Notes under the pieces: model-generated
Told to the model about the DNA's origin: nothing
Database searches by the model: none
The model's input: the letters and a program-made list of their open reading frames with translations, nothing else
Made by a program: the position numbers and the translations under genes
Shown here: piece after piece, positions 28,332 to 48,264 of the stretch
How the letters are laid out: each line of letters begins with the position of its first letter
How positions within the stretch are numbered: position 1 is the first letter of the stretch
From: an uncultured delta proteobacterium
GTDB lineage: Bacteria; Desulfobacterota; Desulfomonilia; UBA1062
Direction of reading: 5' to 3'
Assembly (NCBI GenBank): GCA_963752595.1
Contig: CAVVYZ010000023.1
Span: 20,961 to 84,960 of the forward strand
DNA length: 64,000 nucleotides

Positions 28332-28925
28332 CATAAACTTTGTCATGAACATATGCCCGATCATGGAAAACAAGGCAATGCCCGGAACGATCCCCAATAC
28401 CGTCGCCTTCATGAAATCTCTCCAGCAGACACCCGAAGCTGCAGCTGCCGTATTGATGGCGGTAAACGGGATGAAGGTCAGAAACTGAAGGGCCAGAACA
28501 ATGGGGTAGCCGTTCTTCTGAATCGCGGTCTTCACTTTATGCGATTTCTTGCTTTGCCCCCAGGTTTCATCGATGCCCAGAGATTTTACCAGAAAATACG
28601 CTATGTTTGCATTCAGAAGACAACCGATATAGGACAAGGCCATACCGAGCGGTGCGCCGTAGGCTGAAGAACCTGCCATGACAATCAGGCTGAGCGGTGC
28701 GGCAAGAGGCATGGTGGCGACCATCATGATAAAGAGGATCGCGCCGGATATCCCGATTTTCTGAAGGGTCAGGCGGAAGTAGAGCCAGTCATTCAGGGGA
28801 TAGATATCGATGACACTGAAGAAGCCCAGGAGGGAAAAAAATCCGATGACCAGGAAAATTGAAAGACTTGCACATTTTCCTGCCTGGGCTGGTGTATCAT
28901 CAACGATTTCTTCAACATAATCCAT
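28203..28925 (-). CDS. TVP38/TMEM64 (VTT/DedA) membrane protein
   Basis: Multiple TM helices, FIPF..IN.AA, F..AT.LG..PG. Confidence 0.8.
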   Translation of the reverse strand: MDYVEEIVDDTPAQAGKCASLSIFLVIGFFSLLGFFSVIDIYPLNDWLYFRLTLQKIGISGAILFIMMVATMPLAAPLSLIVMAGSSAYGAPLGMALSYIGCLLNANIAYFLVKSLGIDETWGQSKKSHKVKTAIQKNGYPIVLALQFLTFIPFTAINTAAAASGVCWRDFMKATVLGIVPGIALFSMIGHMFMTKFMSPRFYFAVISVMALMIIFVAVRKKNAQLRKKAAAQDFCKCFN

Positions 28926-29123
28926 CTGTCTTCCCCCGGGTACAGTCTGGTAACATTAAAATCATCGGCAGGATAAAGGGTTACATAAGGAGATCACAAT
29001 ATCGTATCCTGGTTGAATATCATTACACGCAAAGCAAAGGTTAGCTGGATTTATTTTGGAAATTTATGCTATTATAAAGTGATTACTATTATTTATTCGT
29101 TTTCTTGTGAAGATGGAGGAACT

Positions 29124-31253
29124 ATGGGAGAAAACCCTGTCAGCGCCCTGATGAACCCGTCAACCATCGCTGTTGTGGGCGCAAGCAACAATCTGACCAC
29201 CATGGGCACCATTCAATGCATGAATCTCCTTACCAGCGGTTTTCCGGGAGAGGTCCTGCCCGTTCATCCAAAGGATACAACCGTCCTGGGCAGAAAGGCA
29301 TATCCTTCCATAACCGATCTGCCGTATGCGCCGGACCTGGCGGTACTTGTCGTACCCACCAGGCTTGTTCCCGGCATGCTTGAAGAGCTCGGTAAACTCG
29401 GAACTCGTTCCGTTATCATCGTATCTGCAGGTTTCCGGGAAACCGGCGAGGAAGGCAAAGCGCTGGAAGCAACCATTCTGGAGACCGCTGAAAGGTACGG
29501 AATGCGTTTTCTTGGACCGAACTGTCTCGGGATTATCAATACCCATCTTCCGCTGAATCTCACCGTGGGGCCGATACTCGATTATAACGGTAAGCTTGGC
29601 CTTGCTTCCCAGAGCGGAACCTACATTGCACAGGTGGTCTCCTATCTCCACAGGAACGGCATTGCCATAAGCAAGGCCATCAGCGTCGGCAATGAGGTGA
29701 ACATAGACTTGACGGACTGTCTTGAATATCTCGGCGGAGATGAAGCCACCAGGGCCATCGGGCTCTATATCGAGGGGATAAGGGATGTCGGGCGGTTTCT
29801 GGAAGTGGCCGGCAGGGTAAGCAGGATCAAGCCTATTGTTGCGCAATATGTCGGAGGGTCCAAGGCCGGGGCGAAATCCAGCGCCAGTCATACCGGAGCC
29901 ATGGCAGGTCCGCTGCATCTGTACGAAGCGCTGTTCGATCAGGCCGGCATAATCGGTGTGGATTCCATAGAAGATGTCTATAAAATCGGCTGGTCTTTTG
30001 CGACCCAACCGCGATTAAAGGGAAAAAGGATAGCGGTTCTGACAAACTCCGGCGGTCCGGGGACCGGCATGGCAAACACCCTTGACAGGTGCGGGCTGGA
30101 CATCCCTGAGTTTTCTCCGGACCTGCAGAAAAAGATCTGTGCACACCTTCCTCCCCATGCCAGCGGTCGAAATCCCGTCGATCTCACCTTCCATGTGGAT
30201 ATGAAAGGGCTTACAGAAGAGATCCCCAGGCTGCTTTTCGCATCTGATGAAGTCGATGGGATCATCATCCATGGGATCATGGACACAGGATTCATGGAGC
30301 TTTTATACCCTGCGGTGAGCACGTTTATGGATATCACGAAAGAGCAGCTGGTTTCTTTTGCAAAGACCAGTATTGATCCCCTGGCTGAAATGCCCTGCAC
30401 ATACGGGAAACCGTTGCTGATTTCATCTTTTTTCGATAGTAAGCTCGATAACTGCGTCCGGTCATTTCACCGGAAGCAGGTTCCTGTTTTCGATTCACCG
30501 GAAAAGGCAGCCAGGGCAATGGCGTCTTTGCATGCGTATGAAACATTCATTAACAGAAACGGAGGTGTCCGGAAATTGAATCCGGAAAAACTCCCGAAGC
30601 TGCAGTTCATTTTTAATTCCTTTGCACAGCAAAATCGATGAGTTTCAGGCAAGAAATTTCTCCAGGCATACGGTATCCCGATCACCCAGGAGATGACGGC
30701 ATTCAGCATTGATGACGCAAAAGAAAAGGCGGATATTATCGGTTATCCGGTGGTGCTCAAGGGATGCTCTGCAGAGATAAGCCACAAAACCGAACACGGT
30801 CTGGTTTATCTGAACCTTGCAAATGAACAAGAACTCGCGATAGCATATCAGGCGTGAAGAGAAAGGGATGATACTTCGCCTGTTCTTATTGCGGAAATGG
30901 TCAAGGCTGACAGGGAATTTATCATCGGCATGAGCCGCTTACCCCGGCTTTCCTCCAAGTATCATATTTGGAATGGGAGGTGTCTTTGCAGAAGCCATAA
31001 ATGATTTTTCCGTGCGTTTTGCACCACTTTCCCGGTCAGATGCCTATGAAATGATGGAACAGTCTCAGATCAAAGGCACTGTTGAAGGACTACCGGGGCA
31101 TGATCCCTGTCAGGAGAGAGGAAATTGCGGATATTCTTGATGGCGATCAGTGATATTTCCCTGCATTTTCCCATGATTCGGGAAATCGATCTCAATCCTG
31201 TCATGGTGATGAATGGCAAGCCGAAAGTTGCTGATGCACTGATGGTGCTTTAA
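29124..31253 (+). CDS. ADP-forming acyl-CoA synthetase (fused alpha/beta; indels in 3' part)
   Basis: AVVGAS, SAGFRE, LGPNCLG, SQSG, SHTGAMAG, NPVDLT; downstream GYPVVLKG..SHKTE, EIDLNP. Confidence 0.9.
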
Positions 31254-31273
31254 ATAAGAATAAGGAGAAAAAA

Positions 31274-31669
31274 ATGCAGCAGAAGATTAGAGAGATGATG
31301 GCGATTTATGATGAAAAGAACAGGATGCCCTGTGCAGTTGCTCATTATATTGCGGATGTTCTCAAGATCGACCCACTCCTGGTGGGAAAGGAAGCAACAG
31401 CAGCAGGGGTGCGGTCTGATCGGATGTCAGCTGGGTTTATTCGGATATGGAAGGAAAGGAAAATCAGAGTATAAAATAACAGGAAGGAAGATCGAGAATC
31501 TAGATGAAATAATTGATGCCATCAAAAACCAGGCAGTGGATGGAAAGATTGCCTGCGCCCTTTTATGGAAGATTGCAGACGATGCAGACATAATCCGGTG
31601 CGAGGCCGGTAACGCAGCTGACGCTCTCGGGTATGAAAATATCCCCCTGCCAGCTGGGAGCATTTCTAA
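31274..31669 (+). CDS. Hypothetical protein with duplicated C..A..IA..G....CQLGxF domain (indels)
   Basis: Two ~55-aa repeats ending CQLGLF and CQLGAF, read across frames. Confidence 0.65.
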
Positions 31670-31828
31670 CAACCGGGATATTTTGAACGAATTCCTGCAA
31701 GTCCATAAACTGAAAAGTAATTTGTTATTTTTCGGAAATTGTGATTGAAAGGGAAGAATGGCTCCTGTATTATTATAAAACTGAGCTGAAATAGATTTTA
31801 TGTACACCCCTTTCATTCGGGAGGAAAT

Positions 31829-32444
31829 ATGCCGGTACGGATTACCTGGCTTGGCCATGCTGGTGTTATGATCGAATCGGCCATTACCCTGTACATTGAC
31901 CCCTGGAAGGTTGGACATTCATTGCCGAAAGCCGATATAATTTGTGTAACACATGATCATTACGATCATTATTCTGAAAAAGATATCGAATCTCTTCGTG
32001 ATTCCGGCACCAGGGTTATTGCCCCCATGCACACGTCATGATCACGGATAACATAAGTACCGGCACATCGGTGACAATAAAGGGCATAACCATACAGGCT
32101 GTCCCTGCGTACAACGTGAACAAGGCATTCCATCCGAAAGAAAAAGGGTGGATAGGTTACATCCTGGATATTCAGGGAAAAAGGATCTATCACACCGGTG
32201 ATACGGATAAAATCCCGGAAATGGCGGGGATTGATGTCGACCTTGCTTTTCTTCCGGTGGGCGGCACGTACACGATGGATTCACAGGAAGCAGCGAGGCT
32301 GCCCATGATATGAAAACACGCATGGCCGTGCCCATCCATTACGGAGACATTGTGGGATCGGAAAAGGATGCTGTACGGTTTTCAGAATTATGCCCGTGCA
32401 CGGTCCGTATCCTCCATCCGGGTGAATCCATGGAATTACCATAA
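31829..32444 (+). CDS. MBL-fold metallo-hydrolase (indels)
   Basis: WLGHA, IDP, THDHYDH, YHTGDT, PVGG.YTM, P.HY. Confidence 0.9.
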
Positions 32445-32448
32445 GCCG

Positions 32449-34380
32449 ATGGATATCAATGTAAATAATATCAAGAGTGTTTTTGAGTCTGCTCCTTTTG
32501 CCGTTTGCGCATTCGACAGAAGCGGAACGGTGATCTACGTAAACAAGCTGCTGGAATCCAATATAGAACCTTCCGTGCTGCCCTTTGTAGGTAAATCTCT
32601 CTATGAACTGGTGCATAAGTTCCTTGTGGATGAAAGGCTTGAAAAAAATCTGAAGCGCCTGATTGAAAAGAACAAACCTTTTTCAGTAGTTGTGAAACAT
32701 TGAGTTCCCCACGGGTCCGTGCTTCAGGATTATAATATCACCTTGGCTATAAAATGGATTCCCTTTGTGCTGGTGGCTGATTTCGTCAAGTGGAACCCTG
32801 GGAAGGGAAGGGAGATACCGGAAACTCATCGAGGATGCCCCGGACGCCATCGTCGTTCATCAATAGCCAGGATTCATTACCTTCGTGAATCCTGCCTTTC
32901 CAATGTCATAGAAGCACATTCCGATCAAGTGCTCGGCAAGCCCATATTCGACTTGGTGGACGATAAAGGGAAAGAAGACCTTTCGCCATTGAGAAGAAAA
33001 TCTGCCAAACAGTTTTTTACCCAGATAACCATCCAGGCAAAAGATAAACAGAAGATCCTTGAGGGTAATTTTCAGTTCATTGAAGACAGGCCGGGCACAT
33101 CCATTGCCATGCTGAGGGATGTGACGGAGAAAGTCCTTCTTCAGAAACGGCTTCTCAGGCAGAATCAGGATCTTTCCGCCGTGAACTTGATTTCGAAGAC
33201 CCTCTCTTCATCGATCGAGCTCAAGGAGATCCTCCACAATACCCTTTCTCAGGTACTCCAGATCATGAATATCGAAACCGGCTGGATCTATCTCCTCGAA
33301 AAAGGGAAGAATATTCTGAGGTGCGCCTATTCCTACGGCATTCCCGATGAGGTCGCCCAATCCATAAAAGAGCTCAAGCTGGGCGAAGGGATCGCCGGCA
33401 GGGTTGCCCAGAGCGGCATGCCCATCATTATCGAGAATGCGTCGATGGACTCCCGGATACAATCACTGGCTTTCAAGAAGTATGGGTTCAGGTCTTTCGC
33501 CTCTATTCCACTCCAGTCGAGCAGCCGTCTGATAGGTGTCATGAACATCGGCTCCTTCGGCCAGCGCATCATATCACCTGATGATGAACGGCTGCTCATA
33601 ACGATTGGGGTGCACATGGGAACGGTCATGGAAAATATCCTGTTGTTCCAGGAGATCTCCAAAACCACCGATGAACTCAAAGATGCCCTGAACCTCATCA
33701 GGCAGCGGAACGAGGAGCTGAGGACCCTGGTATCGACTGTTTCCCATGACCTGAAAAATCCCATCATTGCCATTAACGGGTTCTGTGAACGATTCATGAA
33801 GTCTGCCACGGCAAAACTCACTGAAAAAGAAAACCAGTATATCAGCGCCATCCATGAGAGCGGAAAGCACATGGAGCAATTCGTCACAAACCTCCTGACC
33901 CTGTCTGCCGTGGAAAACCTCAAGCTCAGGAAGGAAGAGTTTCCGGTCAAGGACATCGTCGATGATATATGCATGGAGATGGCGGCTCAGCTTGACGACA
34001 AGAAAGGCAAAATATCTCTGGACAGCGAATTGCCGGTGGTAAAGGCCGACAGGATAAGGGTAATGCAGGTCTTTTCCAATCTCATTTCAAATGCGATCAA
34101 ATATGCAGACCCGAAAAAGGATCTTGTGATAAACATCGGATATCAACCCCAGTCAAAAATGCATATTTTTTATGTACAGGATAATGGTATGGGTATTGCT
34201 GAAGAGCATGCGGAAAACATCTTCGATATCTTTTACCGTGCCTATGAAAACCATGCAGAAGGTACGGGAATAGGTCTGGCAATCGTGAAAAAAGCATTAA
34301 GCGTAATGGGTGGAGATATCTGGATTAAATCAAAAATTGGACAGGGTTCGGTTTTCTATTTTTCCATTCCCATGGAATAA
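32449..34380 (+). CDS. PAS/GAF sensor histidine kinase (indels in 5' part)
   Basis: GEGIAG GAF, SHDLKNP, NLISNAIKY, DNGMGI, GTGIGL. Confidence 0.92.
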
Positions 34381-34419
34381 CCATACGCCCCCGTTTTACC
34401 AGTTTAATTGGATATACAT

Positions 34420-36053
34420 ATGGACAAGAATCAGAATATATTATTGAAAATCATCTTATGCATCGCCGTTGCCGCCCTGTTCATCAACATAGGCGGAAAG
34501 GCCTTGTGGGATCCTGATGAAGCGAGATATGCGGAGATGGCACGTGAAGTCGTGGTGCTCAACGATTGGCTGACGCCGCATCTCAATTTTCTGCTCTATT
34601 TTGAAAAACCCATGATGTATGTCTGGATGGTGGCGGCGAGCTTCAAGGTATTCGGTGTAACGGAATGGGCTGCCCGGCTTGTTTCCCTCCTGTGCACCCT
34701 GGGAGGTGCCGCCCTGACAGGATATATGGCCTATAAACTGTGGGGACGGAGAGCAGGACTCATTTCCGCAATAATACTCCTGACCTCGCTTGAGTATTTA
34801 CTCATGGCCAATATCGTTGATCTGAACATGGCCCTTACCTTGTTCATAACTGCAGCCATGGTTTTTTTCTGGCAGGGACAGCAGGAAAAGAAGGCACTCT
34901 GGTTTTATCTCTTCTGGATATCCATGGCGCTGGCGACATTGACCAAAGGGCCATAGGGATTGTCCTGCCTGCAGGAGCAATCGCCGTATATATTCTCATG
35001 ACAAAGCAGTTCAACCTGATTAAGGAGTCCAGACCAATTTCGGGCATCCTGCTTTTCCTGCTCATTGCAGCTCCCTGGTTTCTGTATATGAGCATGAAGC
35101 ATCCTGATTTTTTCTCTTTTTTCTTCATAAATCAGAACATACAACGGTTTGCGGTATCCGATGAGCATAACAAACCTTTTCATTATTTCTTCATGATCAT
35201 CATCATGGGATTCCTTCCCTGGACTTTTCTGTTTCCTTTATCGCTGAAAAAGATATGGGATAAGGGCATCTCGAAAGAGATCATCTACCTGGCCTGCTGG
35301 TTTCTGGTCATCCTCACCTTTTTCACCTTTTCCCGGTCAAAGCTGGGTACGTACGTGTTTCCCTGTTTTCCCCCGCTGGCCCTTTTCGTGGCAGATGTCC
35401 TGAGAGAAAAAAAAGAAGGATTGAGGATACCGCTTTACGCAGCAGGGATCCTGTGGATCTGTCTCGGCCTGGTATTACTGTTTTTCTCGGTACTGGTTTC
35501 AAACGGCATACTGAAGTTATCATCGTCCAATGCCTTGCCCCTCATGGATATCGGTCACTGGGGTGGCGCCATCATAACAATTGCTGCACTCACCGGCATC
35601 CTCCTGGGCAGAAGATACGGAACGGCCCTGGGGTTTGCCGTCCTGGGAACTGCACTCATCATAACCGTCAATGGGTTCTCTCATTATTGGGATGATATGG
35701 AGTCAACCAAACACCTGGTGAAGGATCTGCCGTCACAGGCGATCCTCTGCTCCTATAAGAGATATTATCAGAGTGCGAGCTTCTATGCTCAGAAACAGGT
35801 GATATTGGTGGATACTCTGGGAGAGCTGGAATTCGGTGTCCGGCACCATACCGGTTCCCCCATAACCATGACCCTGGACACCCTCAGCCGTCTCATGGAA
35901 ACGGATAAAAAGGTCTACTGCATAACCTCGGTAAGACATCTGCCCTTTCTGCTGGCCAATATTCCCGATGCCGTTGTGACAAAACAGATCAAGGGATACG
36001 CGCTGCTGCATGTCCCTGAAAGCAAAGAACGATTTTACCAGCTGATCCAATGA
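34420..36053 (+). CDS. ArnT/GT83-like integral-membrane glycosyltransferase (one indel)
   Basis: DPDEARYAE.ARE, YFEKP, LTKGP, PWF, SKL.TY. Confidence 0.88.
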
Positions 36054-36081
36054 GTTTTATAACCCCCTGTGGTAATTCCAC

Positions 36082-36110
36082 TTGACACCCTCAGGGGTGG
36101 ATTGTATAGA
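36082..36110 (+). promoter_or_regulatory. Promoter of tRNA-Val
   Basis: TTGACA-17 bp-TATAGA just upstream of the tRNA. Confidence 0.5.
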
Positions 36111-36123
36111 TTCACCACGGTTC

Positions 36124-36195
36124 GGGCCGCTAGCTCAGCGGGAGAGCGCTGCCTTCACACGGCAGAAGTCACAGGTTCAAATCCTGTGCGGCCCA
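36124..36195 (+). tRNA. tRNA-Val(CAC)
   Basis: Acceptor stem GGGCCGC/GCGGCCC, D arm GCTC/GAGC, anticodon arm CTGCC-TTCACAC-GGCAG, T arm ACAGG-TTCAAAT-CCTGT. Confidence 0.96.
36171..36188 (+). repeat. attL core (tRNA T-arm)
   Basis: Identical to 42506-42523. Confidence 0.88.
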
Positions 36196-36236
36196 TACCT
36201 AACTCCTTAATATAATTGTCATATTTTAACTCAAAT

Positions 36237-36258
36237 ATGTTCGCGGAATGTTCGCGGG
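36237..36258 (+). repeat. Putative integrase arm-type sites (2 x TGTTCGCGG)
   Basis: ATGTTCGCGGAATGTTCGCGGG is identical to 42452-42473. Confidence 0.75.
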
Positions 36259-36356
36259 GTTTTTCCAAACCTGTTTTCACTTGTTTATTTTTTTTCAAAT
36301 ATGCAAGATGCCTAAATAGATAATTGATTTTTTTTATTGTTTAAAAGGGATAATAT

Positions 36357-37148
36357 ATGCCACGTGATCAAATACTAAAAAGGGCTTTTGAAATAGCAGA
36401 CGATGGTATGCAAGGTGCTGTTGGATATTTTTATTATGTTGTTGCTGCTCAAGGATTAGCGAAAGAGGAGAGAATAATAGACTACCTCCCAAAAGGATTG
36501 GCTAAACAAAGCGATGGAACACACAAGCCAGCATTCGTTATGAATATGTTCCATCAATGGGTTCGATTTTATAATCCTTTAGAACTCATTCAAACAATGC
36601 ATTCTGTTTTCATACCATACCACATTCGTACATGTTTGTTAGGTATAGTAAGCATCTTTGAGGGATATCTACGAAACACTACTGATCGCTTAGTTAAAAA
36701 AGGATTAATTCCTCGATTACCGGATACTTATAAACAGCGTCTAAAATGGGCGATCGACATTGTACTTACTTCAAACTATGGCGATTCGGAAATGCAAAAG
36801 AGATGTCCGAAATTATGTCTGGATTTAGACCATGCGAGACGTATAAGGAATTTATGGATGCATAATAATGGCAATTTTAATAAACGGTATAAGAGGGATG
36901 CTTTAGCTATTGCCGGTCATGATGCGATAGTTGTACCGGCGTTCTTAAAATTTAAAAAATCTCCCAAAAGTAAAATTGCTTTTCCTATTGAAATGGCACT
37001 ATTCGAAACAATTTCTTGTTCTCACATAGAGGCACTACATCATATTAACCACATGCTACAGACACAACATTTCGGCCAGAAAAGGTCATATGGATATGCA
37101 CGTGAAAATAAAAAAATCGAATGGGAACGCCTACTAACGGGAGTTTAA
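36357..37148 (+). CDS. Putative HEPN-domain RNase
   Basis: IVSIFEGYL helix plus RNLWMH (Rx4H) motif; intact ORF with RBS. Confidence 0.65.
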   Translation: MPRDQILKRAFEIADDGMQGAVGYFYYVVAAQGLAKEERIIDYLPKGLAKQSDGTHKPAFVMNMFHQWVRFYNPLELIQTMHSVFIPYHIRTCLLGIVSIFEGYLRNTTDRLVKKGLIPRLPDTYKQRLKWAIDIVLTSNYGDSEMQKRCPKLCLDLDHARRIRNLWMHNNGNFNKRYKRDALAIAGHDAIVVPAFLKFKKSPKSKIAFPIEMALFETISCSHIEALHHINHMLQTQHFGQKRSYGYARENKKIEWERLLTGV

Positions 37149-37216
37149 GAGTTAAACGCTCAAGGCAATATTTTATTTTTCATATTTTTTAACATTCGCA
37201 GATCGGGTCTGAAACA

Positions 37217-37632
37217 TTATCGATATAACATTTCAATGCCTCTTTTGTCACAAACATCATATAAGTCAATTGTATTAAAACAGATAAAGCCATCAATAGA
37301 TAATGACACATCTTCAAGCATTGATCTAATCACATGATCTACCAAACTGTATGTTTTAGTTTGTTTTTCAAGCACAAATTCTAAAAGAGGTTCACGATAG
37401 CATTTATCTTCAATCAATATTGTTGAGGGTAAATCTAAGAAATGTTTAAATCTAACAACATCATGCTTTCTACGAACTAATCGAGTATGAATCGTCTCAT
37501 AAAGGGTGGGCCAAGGGACGAGTAGTGAATGAACTTGTATCTGTTCATCACCATAGCTTCAGAGTGAAAAGCATCTCTTTCATTGAATAAGGCGAACCAA
37601 TAACCTGAATCAGCAAAAATATTTTTTGGCAT
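37217..37632 (-). CDS. PIN-domain (VapC-like) nuclease (one indel)
   Basis: MPKNIFADSGYWFAL...D.FH, PWPTLYET, SLVD, CFN..D; TAATG coupling to the upstream gene. Confidence 0.75.
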
Positions 37633-37962
37633 TAGATATCATCCTCTGATTCCGCGCCCCCATAACCTTTCCAAGGTGATGCCTTGCGTTTTCCAATGAT
37701 AAATCTACCTTTATTGAGCCTCCGAAGATTTCCAAATAATATATATCCTATCTGATTTGGAAAAATTTACATTTTCTTCCAATTCTTGTCTTAATTTAAT
37801 AGATATATCATCCTCATCATCTTTAAGTGCAGAATATTGAAATACTGCCAAACTACCACCACATTCCTTTGCATCGAGATTATCTAACCATTCATAAAGC
37901 CCCGCATAATCTCCCTTCACTCCAAGGTCATATGAAAGCCATATAGTTTTTTTCATTTTCAA
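37632..37962 (-). CDS. Small Cas2/VapD-like hypothetical protein (one indel near 3' end)
   Basis: IWLSYDL....DY..LY.WLD...A.ECG..., DRIYII; continues GRFIIGKRKASPW.GY in the next frame. Confidence 0.55.
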
Positions 37963-37978
37963 AAGTCCCTTCTGTTCT

Positions 37979-39091
37979 TTAATAGATTTTTCTCTTTTTG
38001 ATTTCGATTATTTTCCCTTCAAGTAAAGCTCTTTTATCATCCAATTCAACCTTCCCATACCGATATACTGATTGAACGCTGGCATGTCCTGTCGCTATCT
38101 TAACTTGTTCAGGAGAATATTGCTTCATCATCTTTGTAACCGTTGAATGCTTTGTTCCTGAATATAGGTTAATCTGAACGCCCGTTTCCTTACAAGCCTC
38201 ATTCCAAAGCCGGCGTACTATGTCCTTAGTGTATCTCTTATGAGGATGATTTGATTCTTTGCAGTTGAAAACAAAGGGGCTAAAGGGATAATCGGTTGCC
38301 ATGCTTTCAAGGATCTCCACAAAATCTGATACAAGAGGGACCTCGTGAATCTTTTTATCTTTTGTGTATACTACTTCCTCACCGCCTGAAATTCCTCTTT
38401 GAACAATGAAAGCCTTTTTATTGGGTCATAATCCTGTTTCATGAGCATCATGGCTGAACTTGGCCTTATCTCAGGATGATATTTAAGCAACCAGAAGATC
38501 GGCTGATGTTTTGTTTCAATAGCTTTAATAATTTTAATCTGGATTTCTTCTGTAACAGCCTTTGGTATTGGATCAACAATTTTATATTCTCGTCGCTTAA
38601 GGGGAAGGGGAGGGAATCTATTAGCTCAGATCTCCAAGCATAATCCATTGCTGATGAAAGACTATCTATAACTTTTTTACGAGTGTTCGGAGTAATCTCT
38701 TTTTTGTCGAGCTCGTTCTTGAGCTGCTTTATGACTTTGAGTTTCACTTCATGAAGCTGGTATTGATACTTGATGAAGAAAGGCTCTAGGTGGTTATTAA
38801 CATACCCCAAATAGTTTTTATAAGTGCCGGGAGACCAATCTCCTTTACATTCATCCAACCATTCACGCAAAAATTGAACTACATTTGAATCTCCATGATA
38901 ATATTTTCTCGGATTAAAAACACCCCGTTCGACATCACCTTGCATCTGATGGAGGCATTTTTCAGCGTCCTCTTTAGTTCTCATCCTTAATCCACGATAG
39001 AATGAGACCTCATACCGTTCGCCTTCATAAAAGAATTTGAATAGAACCAGGTTTTCTTTACTCCATGACGTTGATGGATGCTCCCCTTCAT
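37979..39091 (-). CDS. Tyrosine recombinase/integrase (indels)
   Basis: MKGSIHQR arm-binding N-terminus, SPGTYKNY core-binding region, IRP, LYSGTKHS, TGHASVQSVYRY. Confidence 0.88.
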
Positions 39092-39121
39092 ACAGGTCTC
39101 CAAATTATCACAATAGCTGTT

Positions 39122-39150
39122 ATGGTAAACCTGTTTTTTGTGGAGGTCAA
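39122..39150 (-). promoter_or_regulatory. Integrase promoter
   Basis: TTGACC-17 bp-TACCAT. Confidence 0.6.
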
Positions 39151-39269
39151 TTGCATCGTGGAAGCCCTTATATTTAAACCTTTTTTAAAATTACACTTGA
39201 AGTCCGTTAATAGACGATCTTTTCCTTTTTCAAATTTTTCTTTGTTCTAAAATCTAAGGATTAAAAGGA

Positions 39270-39939
39270 ATATCAGTACTTTCTATTATCAGTCTGTGGT
39301 TATTGAGCCACTGATAGGGATTTTTCACAAAGAAATACATGGTCCTTCTATCTCTTACCCCTGTAGCTCTTCTAGTTGCCTTTGAAGTATATAAAAAGCC
39401 CTCTCAGTCATAGGATAGGTTACTTTGGCAGAAAAAGGGATTTTACCACCTTTACCCCATACATTACCCAGATCTGCATCATAATCTTCAAGGTCTTCTT
39501 TCCCGAGATACTTGCCAGCATAGCCCATTATCCCATTTTCACTTTTAATGGTTTCAACCCTTGTTCCTGCTAATAGATGTTTATCAACTCCAGAGCTGAC
39601 AACATTGAACCATATTGTTGCGATCAACTTACGGGCATCTTCATAAGGTACTCCCCACAGAAAGAAGTGATAGTGAGGAGCTATCTCACCTTTATGAATT
39701 CCAGACTTCCTTTTCTTTATTTCTAAACGCCATATGTAACCGAGATAGGGGTATTCTCTTTTTAAACGCCTGAAGAACTCCTTTATGTGAGCCTTGCTTT
39801 CTTTTGGACTTGGGATTTTTTCATCAGGATATGTCAGCGTTACAAATATAGGTTTTTTATTTCTCTTAACCATTGCCATCATGAGCATTAAACCTTTTCG
39901 ACTTTGTCTTGAAAACCTCTTTCTTATCGCACCAGCCAT
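39270..39939 (-). CDS. HUH rolling-circle replication initiator with two catalytic Tyr
   Basis: Motif I FVTLTY, motif II PHYHFFLW, motif III YAGKYLGK; C-terminus likely extends past 39355 via an indel. Confidence 0.85.
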
Positions 39940-40334
39940 GAATCATCTCCTTTTTTAAACACTAAAACTTTCACTATACCGTTGTCATACTGGATCACCT
40001 CTTTGACGGATTTTCTCCTTCCCTTGGTTTCCTTGAAGATTATCAATCTGCCTTCAGGATAGTAATCTATGACTATGAGATTATTACCTTTTACATTTAT
40101 TCTTCTAGGTATATGCTTATGGTTTGATGGATGATTTGTTTCATAGGTATGTGTTCTTGAATTAACATAGGACAAGCCCCTGGCACCTTCGGTGCCTCTG
40201 CCGCTTGCGCTCGCTTGCTCCCCTCCCATAGTTCGCCGCTCGCTTGCGGCAGGGTCATCAGGTTCAATCTCAGAAAGTGGTCTTATTGGATATGCGTTTT
40301 CAAAAAGATTAAGTTGTTTTGGTTGTTTTGCCAT
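39924..40334 (-). CDS. Hypothetical protein upstream of Rep (or Rep N-terminus) with QLNLF clamp-binding-like motif
   Basis: 136-aa ORF overlapping rep by 16 nt; spans the GC-rich hairpin cluster. Confidence 0.55.
   Translation of the reverse strand: MAKQPKQLNLFENAYPIRPLSEIEPDDPAASERRTMGGEQASASGRGTEGARGLSYVNSRTHTYETNHPSNHKHIPRRINVKGNNLIVIDYYPEGRLIIFKETKGRRKSVKEVIQYDNGIVKVLVFKKGDDSWLVR
40161..40254 (-). other. Candidate double-strand origin
   Basis: GC-rich hairpins (CTGCCGC/GCGGCAG, GGCACC-GAA-GGTGCC), repeated GCAAGCGAGCG, followed by GGGCTTGTC. Confidence 0.45.
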
Positions 40335-40368
40335 ATGGGGCTTTTCCCTCTCTTTGAGAGAGCCCCAC

Positions 40369-40397
40369 TTGACTCTTTAGCTATAGAAATATACATT
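40369..40397 (+). promoter_or_regulatory. Antisense promoter in the rep leader
   Basis: TTGACT-17 bp-TACATT. Confidence 0.65.
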
Positions 40398-40402
40398 TAT
40401 AC

Positions 40403-40484
40403 AGCTGAGTAAGCCGAAAGGCCCTCATGCTCCAAAAGGCCAGGCATTGCGTCTCGCCAAAGTCCGATGCCTGGCTTTTCCTTT
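40403..40484 (+). ncRNA. Candidate countertranscribed copy-control RNA
   Basis: GCC-GAAA-GGC hairpin then terminator AAAAGGCCAGGCATTG..CGATGCCTGGCTTTTCCTTT; antisense to the rep leader. Confidence 0.55.
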
Positions 40485-40493
40485 AATTAATTC

Positions 40494-40896
40494 TTATTTT
40501 TTTTCACGCGTGCCATATAAAGCCCTTTTTCTTTGTCATAACTTTCATCATCTATTCTATATTCTTCTTCCCTCTTTATTCTCATTTCTTCTTTTATCTT
40601 TTCAACATCTTCGGCAGGGGATATAAATGTAAGCCCCGTGGGTTCGATTTAGGAGAACACGTAGGGCATGTGTTAATTTACTATCTTGATCATCATAACT
40701 AAACCTATAGGCCCTTATACGTTTCTCTTTTCTTCAAGTTGATGATATAGGCTCTGCTCACATCTAGCCTTCCAGCAGCCCCACCAGGAGAAACCACTTG
40801 CCCTTCAAATTCTTCACACACTTGATTAAACTCATCAAACGAGTTTAATTTAATTGTTCCACCCTCACATGATTTGAAGTTTTTTTTCTTATCCAT
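40494..40896 (-). CDS. Small HTH DNA-binding protein (Xis/Cop-like; indels)
   Basis: VSPGGAAGRLDVSRAYI helix-turn-helix; AAGGAA RBS. Confidence 0.65.
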
Positions 40897-40938
40897 GACT
40901 TATGTTCCTTTCGTCTTTAGGATATCTACTAAACAAGA

Positions 40939-40977
40939 GTTAGTAACATAGGTTAGTAACATATGTTAACAACATAG
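40939..40977. repeat. Three tandem 13-bp repeats (operator or iterons)
   Basis: GTTAGTAACATAG GTTAGTAACATAT GTTAACAACATAG. Confidence 0.8.
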
Positions 40978-41002
40978 ATCAAGTATAAAAATGTGATGAT
41001 CT

Positions 41003-41200
41003 CTACGCTTCACTCCCCCGGCTCCCCACAGGTCCGCCGACCCTCCCTTCGTCCTCTTTTCCTGACTGCCGAAAGACTGACCCCTCTGGGCCTCCATTGT
41101 GCCTTCATTACATTACGGCACAACAGAACCTAGGCCCTGGGAAGCTATCCGGGGTCTCGGCGGTCAGAGAGGAGTATGGGGTAGCGTTCAGCTACGCTAC
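41003..41200. other. Candidate single-strand origin or packaging hairpin
   Basis: Nested stems TCCTCT/AGAGGA, CTGACTGCCGA/TCGGCGGTCAG, GACCCC/GGGGTC, GGGCCT/AGGCCC, TTGTGCC/GGCACAA; TAGCGT hexamers adjacent. Confidence 0.55.
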
Positions 41201-41323
41201 GAGAAGATAGCTTCAATGAAATCTATAAACGCAAGAATAATGAATTATTCAGCCTCAAAGTAGATCATTTAATTATAATATGATATTAAATCCTTAGACC
41301 GCTTCTAAAGAGAGGGTATAAAT

Positions 41324-42359
41324 ATGAAAAGGAACTCAAATAATAATATAATTTTTACAATTTTAATTTCTTTTATTATCCTGAATTATTTACCCATTAA
41401 AGCAGAAGCAGATGAGAACCCTCAAGAACAAAAAATATTGGTTCTGGAAAATAGATTAAAAATAAACACAGAGTCTCTTGATGCGGTTAGAAGAGATCAG
41501 CTTAATTATAATATAGAAAAAAATTTGTTAAAAGAAGCATACGCTTCAAACATGCAAACAATTAACCTTATTATAGCTCTAATACTTGGTTCATTAACAA
41601 TCCTTGGATATGCTGGAGTAAGAAGTATCAATTCAATCAAGAAAGATTTTAAAGGAGAGTTAGATAATTTAATTTTATTAAGAAGTGAGTTTGACTTGAA
41701 AATGAGAGATGTTGATGATCAACTTTTAAACGCAAAGAAAAGATACGATGAATTAGCTCAAGTAAACGAAAAGCAGGATAAACGCCTTCAAATTCTAGAA
41801 ATTCAAGAGAAATCAGCTGCGCTTATAAAAGAGAAGAACTTTTCAAATGCCCTAAGATACATCGATATTGGCCTTAGCCTTTCTAGTCATGATATTAGTT
41901 TTCTATCAATGAAAGCATTATGTCTATTATGTCTAAAAAGGTTTGATGAATGCATCTTTGCCTATGAAATTTTATTATCACAAGACTCAAACAATATTAG
42001 TGCTATCACAAACTTAATTGAGCTTTATTTACTTACAGGAAAGCGGGAAAAATCTAGTTTCTTATGCAGGTGCATTTGCCAATACTCAGTTCCATTTATG
42101 GCCCTTATTTTTCATGGTACATATCTGCACTTGATCACTTCCTATCAGGAAACGAAGAGGATTTGAAAAAATTGTTGATGCATCATCCTGTAGATGTTCC
42201 TGAATCAAAATCTCCACGTATAAATAACTGGACCTATGGTGACGCTCTCTATATTTATAAACCGTATGTCCAATAAACCGGGATATAAAGCTATGTTAGG
42301 TGCATACTTTCTTAGAAGGTAAGCTATCTCTCGAAGAATTTAACAGAGAAATTCGCTGA
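41324..42359 (+). CDS. Membrane-anchored coiled-coil/TPR protein (indels in 3' part)
   Basis: Signal peptide (..IKAEA), TM helix INLIIALILGSLTILGYAGV, coiled coil, TPR helices; 3' end approximate. Confidence 0.65.
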
Positions 42360-42451
42360 CATACATTACGGTTCAACCAAACGAACTGGCGCTTACGGCG
42401 AAGTCCGTAATCTAACTTAATCACTAATCATCAACACATTCGAAACACAGA

Positions 42452-42473
42452 ATGTTCGCGGAATGTTCGCGGG
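42452..42473 (+). repeat. Putative integrase arm-type sites (2 x TGTTCGCGG)
   Basis: Identical to 36237-36258. Confidence 0.75.
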
Positions 42474-42505
42474 TACCTGTAGAACAAGGCCTGATGCTGG
42501 TGTAA

Positions 42506-42523
42506 ACAGGTTCAAATCCTGTG
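42506..42523 (+). repeat. attR core (displaced tRNA 3' fragment)
   Basis: ACAGGTTCAAATCCTGTG, then TGGCAA instead of CGGCCC. Confidence 0.88.
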
Positions 42524-42560
42524 TGGCAAAGGAATAATGGATCAAAATTTAAGAGAACGA

Positions 42561-42800
42561 GTGACTTTACCCAAAGGGTGGAGTCACAATGTTTTGTTTT
42601 GTCTTTGAATCCCCATTGAAACAGGTGAGGAGCGGAGGGGAAATTTGGGGAAACAGCGGCGTTTGTCTGAGCGGAGTGAAACGGAGCGAGTTTAGCCGCG
42701 GCCCAAATTTTCCCGAGCACCGCAGCGGACCCCGCAGGGGCTGTTTCACTTGGGGTGCCCTTTTTCGGTTCCTTTTTTGGGCAAGCAAAAAGGAACAAAA
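42561..42800. other. Highly structured non-coding element
   Basis: Nested inverted repeats CCCCA/TGGGG, TGAAACAG/CTGTTTCA, GGGAAATTTGGG/CCCAAATTTTCCC, GCGGC/GCCGC, GTTCCTTTTT/AAAAAGGAAC. Confidence 0.6.
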
Positions 42801-42963
42801 GCTTATTTTGAGTTGGCCGAAAGCAAGCTTTATTATCGTAAATAAAACAGCTTTTTAGTTTGGGGAAACCCAGAAATAACCCAATGCTATAATCTAATGT
42901 TTTCCTGGACTGTGTCGTACAGTAAATGGTTGCAAATCCCATGCGCAAAAAGGTCCAACTATT

Positions 42964-44122
42964 ATGATTGATATGCAACAGATGAATGTCCTTATCGTCG
43001 ATGACATGGAGAACATGTGCAAAGCGATTAGGGGGATGCTGAGAGTCCTGAACATCGGCGGGCAAGTCTATTACGCCTATAACGGACTTGAAGCCTGGCA
43101 GATACTCCAGAAGCCGGATACCCAGGTCGACCTTGCCATCATCGACTGGAACATGCCGCAGAATGACCGGGGTGGAGCTGCTCGGCCATATCAGGGAAGA
43201 CGGAAGACTGCGGGATATGCCGGTGATCATGGTAACCGCGGAGGCCAACAGAGAGATTGTTGCCCAGGCGGCTGAATCGGATATCGATGCGTACCTCCTG
43301 AAGCCCGTTACCGTAAAATCCCTGGAAGATCGCCTGAAGACGGTCATCCAGAAAGCCAACAATCCGCCTCCCATGGTCCATCATCTCAAAAAAGCCAGGA
43401 ATTATGAGGAAAGTGGAAACCTGAACGGCGCCATATCCGAGGTGAAGCTGGCAATAGAAGCGAACCCGTCCTCAACGAGGCCCATCAGGGAGCTCGGACA
43501 TCTCTATTTCAGCAAAGGCGACCTGGACGATGCGGAAAAGTGGCTTCTCAAGGCGGCCAAGCTGAACAACCTCGATGTTTTTGCCTGCCATTCGCTGGGC
43601 GAGCTGTACCTGAAGCGCGGCAACATGGACGAAGCCATCAAATATTTTGAAAGGGCCATGCAGATAAGCCCGCGGCATCTGGAAAGGGGTCTCAACTTCG
43701 GCAAGGTGCTCCTTGAAAAGAACATGACTGCCAAGGCAGTAAAGGTGTTCAATAAAATACTGGAGCTGGCGGACGACCCCCTTTCTCTGCGGGAAGATAT
43801 TGCCAATATCTGCATGGAAAGAGGGGAGTTCCGGCATGCCGTTCAGCTGTACACGATCATCCTGCAGCACGCACCGAACCGAACAGATATCATGGTCAAA
43901 CTGATTGACGCGTACCTTCGTTCCGGCGAGGGTCAGAAGGCAATGCCGTATCTCGTGGACCTGCAGAAGAAGGAAGAAAGAAACATAAAACTGCTTATAA
44001 TCATCGCAAAGGCCTACCTCACCCTCAAACAGACTGCGCGGGCCGATCAGGTGCTCCAGAAAGTGTTCAGGCTGGACCCTGAGAATTATGAAGCGAAGAA
44101 TCTTATCAAGCAATGCTATTGA
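42964..44122 (+). CDS. Response regulator with C-terminal TPR repeats (one indel)
   Basis: LIVDD, IIDWNMP, MVTAE, YLLKP, then multiple TPRs. Confidence 0.9.
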
Positions 44123-44134
44123 CGGGAAGGCGAT

Positions 44135-45354
44135 ATGGCAAACATGATGCAGAATGATTTACTGACGATTATCGGGATATCACATGACAGGTCTCTTTCC
44201 ACCAAAGAAAAGCTCCAGTTGATCATCGAGAAGGTGGTGGCCTGCATGAACACGGAAAGGGGTTCCATCATGCTCATGAGCGGAAGGGATACCCTGGAGG
44301 TAGCTGCCTCTACAAAACCGGAACTGATCGGCATAAAGCAGTCGATCAGGGAAGACACTCCATCGGCCTGGGTGGTGAAAAACCGGCAGATTCTGTATAT
44401 CGGGCCTGATACGGGGGCCATGCCCTTCAAGAAAAGGTTTGATTATTATAAAAAAGAAGCGTTCCTGCTTGCGCCGATTATCATGCACAATAAAGTAATC
44501 GGGGTTCTGAACATTACAGACAAAAAAGATGCCGACTCGTTCAGTTCCCAGGAGCGGGAGCTCTTCCTCACCATAGCCGGGTATGTCATCAGCGCGATTG
44601 AAAACCAGCGCCTGTCTGAATCGTTGAGAAAAAGCCGGAATGATATCAAGCGGAAGAACCAGGAACTGAGAAAGCTGGAAAGAATCCGCACCGAGCTTTT
44701 CAATATGCTCATCCATGATCTGAAGGGGCCGCTTTCAGAGGTTGTGGCAAGCCTTGATATCCTTTCTTATGTGATCAAGGATGAAAATCTCGATTATATC
44801 GACATCGGCCCAGTCGCCTGTGATACCCTGCTGCGGATGATTTCCGACCTGCTCGATATAACGAGGCTTGAAGAAGGATGTCTCAACCTCATTTACGAAC
44901 AGATCGAGCCCGCTCGATATGATACATGAAGCATAATCCGGTTGAGTGCGATGGCAAACTCAAGGGGTATCGAGCTGAAGGAAGACATCGGAACAGGGCA
45001 TACAGGGATGTTCCCGGGTGATAAAGGCATCATCATGAGGGTGATGCAGAATCTGCTCATCAATGCCGTTCAGCATTCACCCCCGGGGTTCATGTATTGA
45101 AACCGGGTTCGAATGTTCAAAGAATACGATAATCTTTCCATGTGCAGGACCACGGTCCGGGCATCGCACCTGAATTTCAGGAATCCATCTTCAACAAATT
45201 CTTTCAGATCACCAAAAAAAGAGATGGTAGAAGATTTTCAACTGGCCTTGGGCTGACATTTTGTAAGATGGCGGTTGAAGCGCATTTGGGCTCCATTCAC
45301 GTTGTGAGTGACGGACAGAGCGGAAGCCGCTTTGTTTTCCACATCCCCTTATAG
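44135..45354 (+). CDS. GAF sensor histidine kinase (indels)
   Basis: GAF (IGVLNITDK), IHDLKGPL, NLL.NA, D.GPGI, STGLGLTFC. Confidence 0.9.
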
Positions 45355-45588
45355 ATCAAGCAGAGGTATATTGTCATCCGGAAACATTCAGCGCTTCCGT
45401 TCGTCCAGTATCAGCAATGAGGTGCAGGCGAAGCTATTAGCATCAGGTGATGATACTTGAACTTCCCTTTCCCGACCATAAGATAGTAAGTCAACGTATT
45501 CATGACACAATAATCGTGATCACCAGAGAATACCTCTTATAATCCATGGTGCACCATCGTGTAGGTACGGATCGGGAGGAACCGCGCA

Positions 45589-48264
45589 ATGCCGAATATA
45601 CCCAAGGCTGTTTACCGGATGCAGTTTCATAAAGGTTTTACTTTTCAGGATGCGGAAGTGCTTTGTGATTATATTGACAAATTAGGAATCAGCCATATCT
45701 ATGCATCATCAATTCTCCAATCAGTGCCGGGCAGTACTCATGGATATGATATTACGAATTACAGCCAGATAAATAAAGAGATAGGAGGGTGGGCCAGGAT
45801 ATGAAACCTTCAGTGCAGCGCTGAAAAAGTCATGGACTGGGCCAGGTCCTGGATATAGTGCCCAACCACATGGCAATAAACAGCCCAGAAAATGTGTGGT
45901 GGCTTGATGTCCTGGAAAACGGTCCATCAAGCCCATACGCCGTATATTTTGATGTGGACTGGAACTATCGGTGAAAACTGTTTGTGAATAAGATAATCCT
46001 TCCCATACTCGGGGATCATTACGGCAGGGTCCTGGATGCCCGTGAAATTCAGCTGCATCGTGAAAAGGGTTTGTTCAGCTTCCATTACTATGACCATATC
46101 CTGCCGGTTTCACCCAACTCTCTGTCGGCACCACTCAAGACCGCAGCCGATCGGTGTCATTCGGATCTCCTGGGATTCATCTCGGATTCGCTGAAAAATC
46201 TTCCTTTGACCACATACACCGACCGGGAGAGTATCCGAAGAAGGCATCGGGATAAAGAAGTCATCAGAAACTGCTTGAAAAATTAATGTCCAGGCAGGAA
46301 GAAGTTGGCAATGCCGTCGAACTGGTTGTCCAGTGAGATCAATGCAAACCCTGAAGCACTCCACGATATACTGGAACAGCAGGTTTACCGGCTCGCATAC
46401 TGGAGGATGGCCGGGCATGAACTGGGATACCGGAGATTTTTTGATATCAATTCCATGGTAGGTCTTCGAATTGAGGACAAGTCAGTCTTTTATGATGTTC
46501 ACGATATTATTTTCAGGTTTCTGAAAACCGGGATACTTGACGGCATACGGATAGATCATCCGGATGGCCTGTGGGACCCCGACGAATATTTCCATCTCTT
46601 GAGAAATGAATCCCCGGATGCCTGGATTGTCATCGAAAAGATCCTTCAGCCAGTCGAGAGCAGCTGAGAGAAGATTGGCCGGTGGACGGATCAACCGGTT
46701 ATGATTTCATGAATCTGGTGTCCGGCCTTTTCATAGATCCTCTGGAAAGAAAAAGAACTTACGGATTTCTATCAAAGAATTCACCGGAGAGACCACTGAT
46801 TACCCTGCATTGGCCAGGGAAAAAAAATATCAGGTACTGAATGAGCTCCTGGACAGTGACATAACAGGCTGACCGATCTGATGGTCAGGATTTGTGAGCA
46901 TAACCGAAGATTCCGGGATTTTACCAGGTATGAAATACGTGAAGCCCTCATTGAAATCATCGCCTCGTTGCCGGTCTACCGTACCTATATAAGGGCACAT
47001 CTCGGTCAGATATCGGATACGGACAGAAACTTATTGCTGACAGGTCATAGATACCGCTAAGGCAAATCGAACAGATTTGGACCAGGAACTGATACATTTC
47101 ATAGGAGATATGATTCTCCTGAAACATCGAGGGGAGCTTGAAACGGAATTTGTCATGCGTTTTCAGCAGTTATCGGATCCGGCCGCGGCAAAGGGTATCG
47201 AAGATACCACGTACTACTGCTACAACCGACTGGTTTCGCTTGAATGAGGTGGGAGGTGATCCCGGGAAGTTCGGAAATACCGTCAGCAGTTTTCACCAAA
47301 GAATGCAGGAAAAAACCAGGAGGTTTCCCCATGGCATGAATGCCACCTCCACCCATGATACCAAGAGAAGCGAAGATGTTCGTGCCCGGCTTTCCCTGAT
47401 TTCGGAGATTCCAAAGGAATGGATCCGGGCCGTGCGGAAATGGTCCGGGCACAACGAGAATATCGCAGGATCGAATATCCCCGGACAGAATACGGAATAT
47501 CTCATTTATCAGACACTCATCGGTGCGTGGCCCATAGAATTGGAGCGGCTTTCCGCATATATTCTCAAGGCATTCGGGAAGCGAAAAAGTATCACCTCCT
47601 GGACCCCCCCGATACCCGGCCTATGAAGAAGCGGTCATCCGGATTCATTGAAAAAATAACTGACAGAGACAAGGAATTCATCATGGACATCCAGACATTT
47701 ATCCAGCCACTTATAGGGCCGGGCAGAGTCAATTCCTTGACCCAGACACTTATTGAAATGTACTGCGCCGGGAGTGCCTGATTTTTATCAGGGGACCGAA
47801 TTGTGGGATTTAAGCCTGGTTGATCCCGATAACAGACGGCCGGTAAACTATCCATTCCGAGAATGGGACTGCTTTCAAAATCATTAAGGATGCACACCGG
47901 AAAACATTCTCAATGGAGATGGAAAGCGGCCTTCCTAAACTGTGGTAATCACGTCGAAGCTCTCAAATTGAGGAGAAGAAATGCCCGGATATATTTGAAA
48001 AGACCGGATTATCAGCCTCTTCCGGTGGAAGGGAAACACAGGCATCAGGATCATCGCTTTCTTAAGGGGGAAGGAAATCGGGACGGTATGCCCCCGGCTG
48101 GTCATGAGTTTTGGCGGCAACTGGGATGATACTGTCATTTAAATTGCCGAACGGCCCCTGGGTAAATCGACTGACCAAGGATATTATTCCCGGTGGAAGG
48201 TTATTCCTGAAGGACCTGTTTCGGCGTTTTCCCGTAGCGCTTCTGACCAGAAAGGGGACTGTAA
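45589..48264 (+). CDS. treY: Malto-oligosyltrehalose synthase (many indels)
   Basis: [68 protein letters not shown]. Confidence 0.93.

Follow-up and report, generated by a model that had tools for sequence, protein, structure and literature searches.

What role does a small protein with a predicted Cas2-type fold play when its gene is translationally coupled to that of a predicted PIN-domain ribonuclease? PIN toxins are among the most common bacterial toxins, and the folds of their partners are nearly all those of transcription factors. An operator-free pairing with a Cas2-fold protein would introduce a new class of antitoxin or sensor, as well as a toxin-antitoxin-like module that is not autoregulated. 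According to the accessible text of Matelska 2017, the partners of PIN proteins comprise RHH (29%), AbrB (24%), Phd (22%) and HTH (16%) proteins. The initial annotation of the locus, which named RHH, AbrB and Phd antitoxins as the normal partners, was therefore roughly right but left out the HTH class.

The gene pair is located on the minus strand of the window, the whole 64,000-nucleotide stretch analysed here. It consists of orfA (37959-37632, 328 nt, approximately 109 codons), encoding the predicted Cas2-fold protein, and a PIN gene (37632-37217), encoding a predicted VapC20/COG2402-like RNase of approximately 139 amino acids. The start codon of orfA is an ATG at 37959 (alternative, TTG at 37962), and its TAA stop codon (37634-37632) overlaps the ATG of the PIN gene at 37632 by one base (TAATG). 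The N-terminal part of orfA reads IWLSYDLG..DY..LYEWLD, and a different frame encodes its C-terminal part; similarly, the PIN motifs YET and SLVD share a frame that differs from that of DSGYW. Coordinates, strand, motifs and overlap given in the initial annotation all agreed with the sequence. In tblastn, intact homologues revealed a single frame change in each gene, at 37745-37715 in orfA and at 37549-37492 in the PIN gene, and the pair was analysed via its pieces and via these intact homologues.

Frame changes were also found in both of the two nearby host genes for which an orthologue from the same genus served as reference; int and arnT were likewise split. Since these neighbours are broken too, assembly indels are a likelier cause of the frameshifts in the pair than decay. 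It is quite unlikely that the window copy represents a decaying pseudogene pair, regardless of the role of the family elsewhere. A frameshift in each of the two genes and the occurrence of broken copies in other genomes would be consistent with decay, but neighbouring host genes are broken in the same way, and the two proteins share 58-78% identity with intact homologues over most of their segments and retain all key residues. Many host genes in the region 28000-47000 of the window are split by frameshifts, which calls for caution with any other 'broken gene' finding from this assembly.

Outside the window, 98 loci were collected, of which 17 ended too soon for evaluation (9 of these showed the start of a PIN gene). 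A PIN gene was located directly behind orfA in 74 of the 81 evaluable loci, which had mostly been found through orfA (2 were found through PIN). Both genes were intact in 65 of these 74; in the others, PIN was broken (6 loci), PIN was divergent and intact (L011), orfA was broken (1 locus) or both genes were broken (1 locus). The seven loci without PIN comprised three intact orfA genes and four orfA fragments. In all 61 distinct intact pairs, which are not independent and represent 45 clusters at 70% identity, the two genes were separated by -14 to +9 nt, with 37 pairs overlapping. A reverse test in 1,183 genomes from three phyla identified, besides three centres, six genomes with PIN hits above 100 bits, and orfA was present upstream of the PIN gene in all six (frameshifted in one). 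A seventh genome carried fragments of orfA and PIN on different contigs. The pairing of orfA and PIN, for which the initial annotation had proposed a co-occurrence survey, is far beyond chance, and PIN was the only conserved neighbour of orfA. The module, 750 bp in length, is real and widespread but rare (approximately 1% or less of sampled genomes). A correlation of 0.31 between orfA and PIN mirror distances, which was reached in 0 of 999 permutations, was set aside as it is explained by shared descent. Two single-ORF fusions of orfA and PIN were likewise discarded; each occurred only once, on a contig of 1 kb, and could be an error.

With the N-terminal piece of orfA as query, 36 proteins were found, the query included; this family size and the remote links described below are lower bounds. 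Nothing in Pfam, NCBIfam, PADLOC, PHROGs or PDB sequences matched the family significantly. None of 33 members matched the Cas2 family PF09827, and none contained an RHH, AbrB, Phd or HTH Pfam domain. A structural model was predicted for the intact homologue P0004 (pLDDT 90). Foldseek searches with this model returned Cas2 proteins in the top rows, none of them at E < 0.001. When 48,161 chains were searched independently, Cas2 accounted for all of the eight best matches (Z 7.1-8.1), followed at lower scores by BPSL1038 (Z 6.9), GhoS (Z 6.2) and VapD-VapW (Z 5.2). Re-alignment identified the type I-F Cas2/3 protein 9p1d as the best match, with a middling Z, as for the other fold matches, of 8.4 (rmsd 4.6; 97 residues, C-terminal tail included), and 48 of the top 50 rows were Cas2 or BPSL1038. 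The best named match in Atlas was PF09827 (0.85), and a profile-profile comparison (hhalign) with 30 Cas2 sequences yielded a weak match (E 0.011). The consistent fold rankings, the Atlas lead to PF09827 and the motifs described below supported a Cas2-type fold for the modelled protein. The Cas2/VapD-type fold that had been guessed by eye in the initial annotation was thereby supported and, in view of this fold and the lack of a match in the profile searches, the upstream protein did not belong to a known VapB class.

Strand 1 ended with an Asp in all of 42 homologues whose detection did not rely on this pattern, and 31 of the 42 had a Ser in the turn between strands 2 and 3; the register of both residues relative to Cas2 and VapD was set by eye. 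The C-terminal tail (RKxxPWxG) was conserved, and W6, C32, R68, Y70, W93 and G95 were invariant residues of surface type. Mean identity was 47% for orfA versus 37% for PIN. No cas genes occurred among the 101 nearest neighbours of orfA-PIN loci and no array-like repeats were detected in 39 loci over 5 kb; cas1 of the window's own genome was located on other contigs. An acidic tail of orfA was considered as a binding signal and rejected, as a ribosome-binding word for the PIN gene is located there in 23 of 61 loci. In three related 244-aa proteins (P0040, P0041 and P0042), a 130-aa N-terminal domain, for which no Pfam or Atlas match was found, is fused ahead of orfA. Two genomes of one genus carried orphan orfA homologues without PIN (L022 and L023, 1501-1794 in both). 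These orphans follow a gene that we take to be guaA, and the copy in L022 overlaps what is presumably dnaE. They retained the Asp and had lost the preceding Tyr and the end of the tail, and are possibly domesticated.

The model of an intact PIN homologue (pLDDT 95) had VapC20 as its nearest structure (E 6e-5), and profile searches matched AF_1683 (1w8i) and VapC20. The acidic residues D8, E47 and D100 were present in all 61 sequences and D124 in 59; all four occurred in the PIN protein of the window. From 1,026 candidates, the subfamily was delimited at E 1e-5 and comprised 269 clusters. The 120 members listed were unnamed, called hypothetical or annotated as 'predicted nucleic acid-binding protein', and the Pfam PIN profile mostly missed them (weak matches in 3 of 8). 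A tree of 50 PINs, whose groups were chosen by score and whose bootstrap had not settled, separated orfA-linked and sister proteins by a long branch with support of 98/97. Judged from their sequences, the orfA-linked PINs are a distinct subfamily, which could belong to the unnamed clusters PIN.5-PIN.7 mentioned in the accessible text of Matelska 2017. In PADLOC 2.0 and NCBIfam 20, one PIN homologue weakly matched PDC-M07B (E 0.004), with its orfA partner unmatched.

The genomic context of more distant PINs indicated which type of gene orfA replaces. None of 16 weaker sister PINs (30-43 bits) was associated with orfA, and 15 of the 16 were preceded by a small gene. Ten of these 15 genes resembled RHH, Phd, AF2212, DUF2281 or DUF6290, with 5 above cut-off. 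These results indicated that orfA occupies the gene slot held by VapB antitoxins in sister PIN loci. By eye, the sister partners (L031, L112-L129) combine differing N-terminal folds with what seems to be a shared C-terminal motif, D-x-S-x2-3-(H/Y)-x2-Y-L, that is absent from orfA and is probably the PIN-binding segment.

Regulation was approached by comparing the best palindrome in the 100 nt upstream of each pair with shuffled sequences. Significant palindromes were found in 1-2 of 59 orfA loci versus 7 of 15 VapB-type controls (Fisher p 1e-4), with the reservation that 1-2 of the hits in controls may be terminators. Across four settings the corresponding numbers were 1-4 of 56-59 orfA loci versus 6-7 of 15 controls. 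This scarcity of operator-like palindromes suggests that orfA does not repress its operon. A further argument, that the upstream region leaves no room for a promoter, was abandoned: the upstream gap was at most 60 nt in 16 of 48 orfA loci and in 4 of 13 controls.

Loss of either gene showed a slight asymmetry. An intact orfA was accompanied by a broken PIN in six loci and by no PIN in three; the reverse, a frameshifted orfA followed by a PIN that was intact, was seen in one locus (L018). The resulting bias towards loss of PIN first is weak (6/7, p 0.12; 9/10, p 0.03), the search having proceeded mostly via orfA and the breaks being possible sequencing errors. A predicted 1:1 complex of the L003 pair, made with alignments, scored 0.18 (mark 0.32) and was evidence neither way.

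Antitoxin, phage sensor and second nuclease, the three options of the initial annotation, are roles that sequence alone does not separate. A novel antitoxin is the best reading of orfA, and there is about an even chance that the Cas2-fold protein restrains PIN after translation, without autoregulation. Gene order, replacement of the VapB slot, the intact PIN site and the lean towards PIN-first loss all favour restraint, while the missing operator and the high conservation of orfA suggest control at the protein level combined with a second role, for example in sensing. In the corresponding mechanism, the pair would be a mobile two-gene module whose upstream Cas2-fold protein keeps the predicted PIN ribonuclease inactive. 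OrfA would form a Cas2-type dimer and would restrain PIN at the protein level, probably via its invariant RKxxPWxG tail. The segment of Cas2 that matches this tail docks Cas1. OrfA would be lost or diverted when the cassette disappears, when host expression is shut off or when a phage protein or nucleic acid binds to it. PIN, no longer restrained, would then halt translation by cleaving tRNA or rRNA, a target proposed by analogy with its VapC relatives only. For the carrying element the outcome would be addiction and, probably, defence by abortive infection. Several observations count against restraint. The conservation of orfA above that of PIN and the retention of Asp and, usually, Ser would be more typical of an enzyme or a sensor than of a simple antidote, and the antitoxin VapW, as described in the available portion of Gilep 2025, has lost the Asp and Ser that orfA keeps. 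In addition, PIN is intact behind the frameshifted orfA of L018, and the defence context of the pair is modest.

The main rival to restraint is that PIN is latent on its own and depends on orfA. By analogy with known defence systems, both genes would be required against phages, the Cas2-fold dimer sensing phage nucleic acid or protein and then activating PIN. This possibility, although rather unlikely, would account for the high conservation of orfA and its invariant surface-type residues, for the lack of an operator signal and for the intact PIN behind a broken orfA. The 130-aa domain ahead of orfA in three proteins resembles what might be expected of a swapped sensor, and the integron cassettes and some defence neighbours described below are also consistent with activation. 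In the available parts of their descriptions, the defence systems DS-5 and HEC-03 combine a PIN protein with a partner other than VapB, and for DS-5 it was reported that PIN and its small partner can both be required and that PIN alone is non-toxic (DefensePredictor). However, the antitoxin-first order and the overlap are as in sister vapBC loci, loss leans to PIN first, and orfA has no match in PADLOC.

A further, unlikely reading is that orfA represents a Cas1-free lineage of Cas2, in which the Asp/Ser cleft would bind nucleic acid and the tail that docks Cas1 in Cas2 would gate PIN, so that foreign nucleic acid on the dimer releases or activates PIN. If true, a Cas2-fold protein would act in phage sensing, and orfA would be a surviving connection of toxin-antitoxin modules with the complex that carries out CRISPR adaptation. 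A standing idea holds that Cas2 descends from a VapD-like toxin (Makarova 2012 and a 2025 review of toxin-antitoxin systems, as far as their accessible texts go). The orfA family bears on this origin as it is structurally nearer to Cas2 than to VapD, is found away from CRISPR loci and is consistently partnered by a protein that is not Cas1.

The two-nuclease and GhoS-type routes are less likely than a latent PIN. It is very doubtful that orfA is a VapD-like nuclease, either as one of two effectors or as a toxin with PIN regulating or repairing its effects. In orfA, residues in register with the catalytic Asp and Ser of VapD are conserved, the same residues are described as forming the site in BPSL1038 and some Cas2 proteins, and VapD, as far as the available account goes, was first found beside vapBC. 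However, orfA persists alone in three intact and six PIN-broken loci and is therefore unlikely to need PIN as an antidote. Moreover, the model is nearer to type I-E and I-F Cas2 (Z 7.7-8.4) than to VapD, no third conserved gene was found as a possible antitoxin, and the nuclease activity of Cas2 is described as dispensable for its job. Finally, a type V-like arrangement, in which orfA would be a GhoS-like RNase that limits toxin synthesis by cleaving the PIN message, is highly improbable: GhoS is reported to be a Cas2-fold antitoxin that cuts its toxin mRNA, it matches the orfA model and this route would require no operator, which fits the scarce palindromes, but the tight translational coupling suggests that the two proteins are made in equal measure, as would be expected of a complex, and the key residue reported for GhoS is an Arg (R28) rather than an Asp/Ser pair.

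In a comparison with known systems, orfA-PIN resembled VapBC in build. Both combine a PIN fold with an acidic tetrad, AF_1683 (COG2402) and VapC20 being the best matches, and in both a small upstream gene overlaps or abuts the toxin gene. In contrast to VapBC, the predicted fold of the partner is Cas2-like instead of RHH, AbrB, Phd or HTH, the orfA loci lack the operator palindrome signal used as a proxy for autoregulation, and the PIN forms its own subfamily. With Cas2 of types I-E and I-F (Cas2/3), orfA shares a ferredoxin-like fold with an extra C-terminal strand and tail, the strand-1 Asp and the turn Ser, but it does not match PF09827, has no cas gene or array nearby and is partnered by PIN rather than Cas1. 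VapD with VapX, VapY or VapW resembles orfA-PIN in its Cas2-like fold, Asp/Ser pair and small two-gene operons, and VapW is described as a Cas2-fold antitoxin. VapD is nevertheless a lower structural match to orfA (9kan), no VapX-, VapY- or VapW-type partner was evident beside orfA, whose only conserved neighbour is PIN, and in those systems the Cas2-fold protein is reported to be the toxin or to inhibit its own homologue. Two orfA-family accessions were not in the accessible table of Gilep 2025.

GhoST, a type V system, is described as having a Cas2-fold antitoxin encoded upstream of the toxin gene, as proposed for orfA; there, however, the toxin GhoT damages the membrane instead of acting as an RNase, the downstream gene is not a PIN gene and GhoS relies on R28. 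In the available descriptions of DS-5, DS-3 and HEC-03, a PIN effector is likewise combined with a non-VapB partner or with none, but the partners are DUF5830/AcrIF4-like or an ABC ATPase. BPSL1038, an orphan Cas2/VapD-like DNase, shares with orfA a Cas2 fold that is independent of CRISPR and carries both the Asp and the turn Ser. It differs in its reported D(X20)SST motif and aligned to orfA only to residue 75, without a match to the C-terminal strand; the accessible text on BPSL1038 does not mention a PIN partner. By the features tested, orfA-PIN is built like VapBC and is not VapBC, VapXD/YD/WD, GhoST or CRISPR-Cas, and no profile of catalogued anti-phage systems (PADLOC 2.0, NCBIfam 20) covered both components.

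The module is apparently undescribed, and the supplements of defence screens may list it as a candidate. The main text of Matelska 2017 contained no reference to Cas2, VapD or ferredoxin, and the expected accessions were absent from the available portion of its supplement. No Cas2, VapD or ferredoxin term occurred in the main text of DefensePredictor and no Cas2 in that of Payne 2024 on HEC systems. A Cas2-fold gene coupled to PIN without VapB was not described in the accessible texts of Makarova 2006, 2009 and 2012, NetFlax, and toxin-antitoxin reviews of 2020 and 2025, nor in those of DefensePredictor, Payne 2024, Soo 2014, Gilep 2025, the BPSL1038 paper and a HEPN survey. Cas2-fold antitoxins themselves are not unprecedented, GhoS (Soo 2014) and VapW (Gilep 2025) being precedents in the texts available; a PIN partner for such a protein was not described in these texts.

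Several features indicated that the module is mobile: its low GC content, below that of the flanks in 45 of 46 loci (median difference 10 points), its patchy distribution, with 0 of 36 same-family genomes carrying the pair, the presence of exact integron-cassette ends in 4 of 58 loci, which are closely related, and one copy on a conjugative plasmid (Advenella pWTk445), located before umuDC. A looser attC scan had yielded nine hits, of which four perfect and one near-perfect were kept and four were dropped as chance. On the Advenella plasmid, the PIN open frame (L108, 8336-8750; NC_017965.1) is absent from the gene table. Named hosts include Methylococcaceae, Bacteroidales, Hymenobacteraceae, Desulfohalobiaceae and Desulfurobacterium. 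No phage record contained the pair, one viral contig did so by repeating a metagenome contig, and no significant viral fold match was found.

The 101 nearest neighbours included 2 transposases and 42 genes without a match, and most of the rest were housekeeping genes. Presumably, 12 of the 101 encode defence or toxin-antitoxin-type domains, a count without a baseline. Some pairs were inserted inside conserved operons. Amid core genes and without an adjoining mobility gene, the pair was observed at nuoB/nuoC and prs/rplY and beside lpxC, ssb and hisD (L099, L021, L008, L019 and L001/L034). In four other loci (L006, L076, L087 and L088) it is flanked on both sides by long directly repeated stretches of host DNA (160-920 bp, 86-96% identical), which suggests that homologous recombination inserted or amplified it. 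The initial annotation had placed both genes directly downstream of int, which is correct for the window, where 19 nt separate the int stop from the orfA start, but does not extend to the family. Since no phage-integrase family occurred among the 101 nearest neighbours in 61 other loci, the link with an integrase is incidental.

In the window, the pair is cargo of a small integrated replicon, as indicated by its location in a low-GC element with int and Rep genes bounded by att repeats and by its absence from the 36 same-family genomes. The element (6.3 kb, 37% GC, versus 49% in the flanks and 53% in the genome) is integrated at a tRNA-Val(CAC) gene (36124-36195, plus strand), with one copy of an 18-bp att repeat within the 3' end of the tRNA (36171-36188, plus strand) and the other at 42506-42523 (plus strand). 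It encodes a tyrosine integrase in frameshifted pieces (37979-38984, minus strand), whose true start is probably further upstream, and a rolling-circle replication initiator (PF23343; 39355-39939, minus strand). No capsid or transfer gene was found in the 6.3 kb, and the element may be a satellite or an integrative plasmid. In an empty-site comparison, the flank gene was present in one of five relatives, where synteny was broken.

Cargo at the two ends of the element is different and unrelated, and these slots are worth mining. A gene for a 263-aa protein (36357-37148, plus strand) is convergent with the pair and showed no significant family match in profile searches. By eye, its R-N-x3-H motif, as defined in the accessible text of the HEPN survey, resembles that of HEPN RNases, and the protein is a possible second effector facing the pair. 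At the other end, a 280-aa protein (41324-42166, plus strand) has hydrophobic stretches and weak TPR hits. Approximately 50 bp inside each att, a 21-bp sequence of two tandem 11-mers occurs in the same orientation (36237-36259 and 42452-42474); these sequences are likely to be integrase arm-binding sites.
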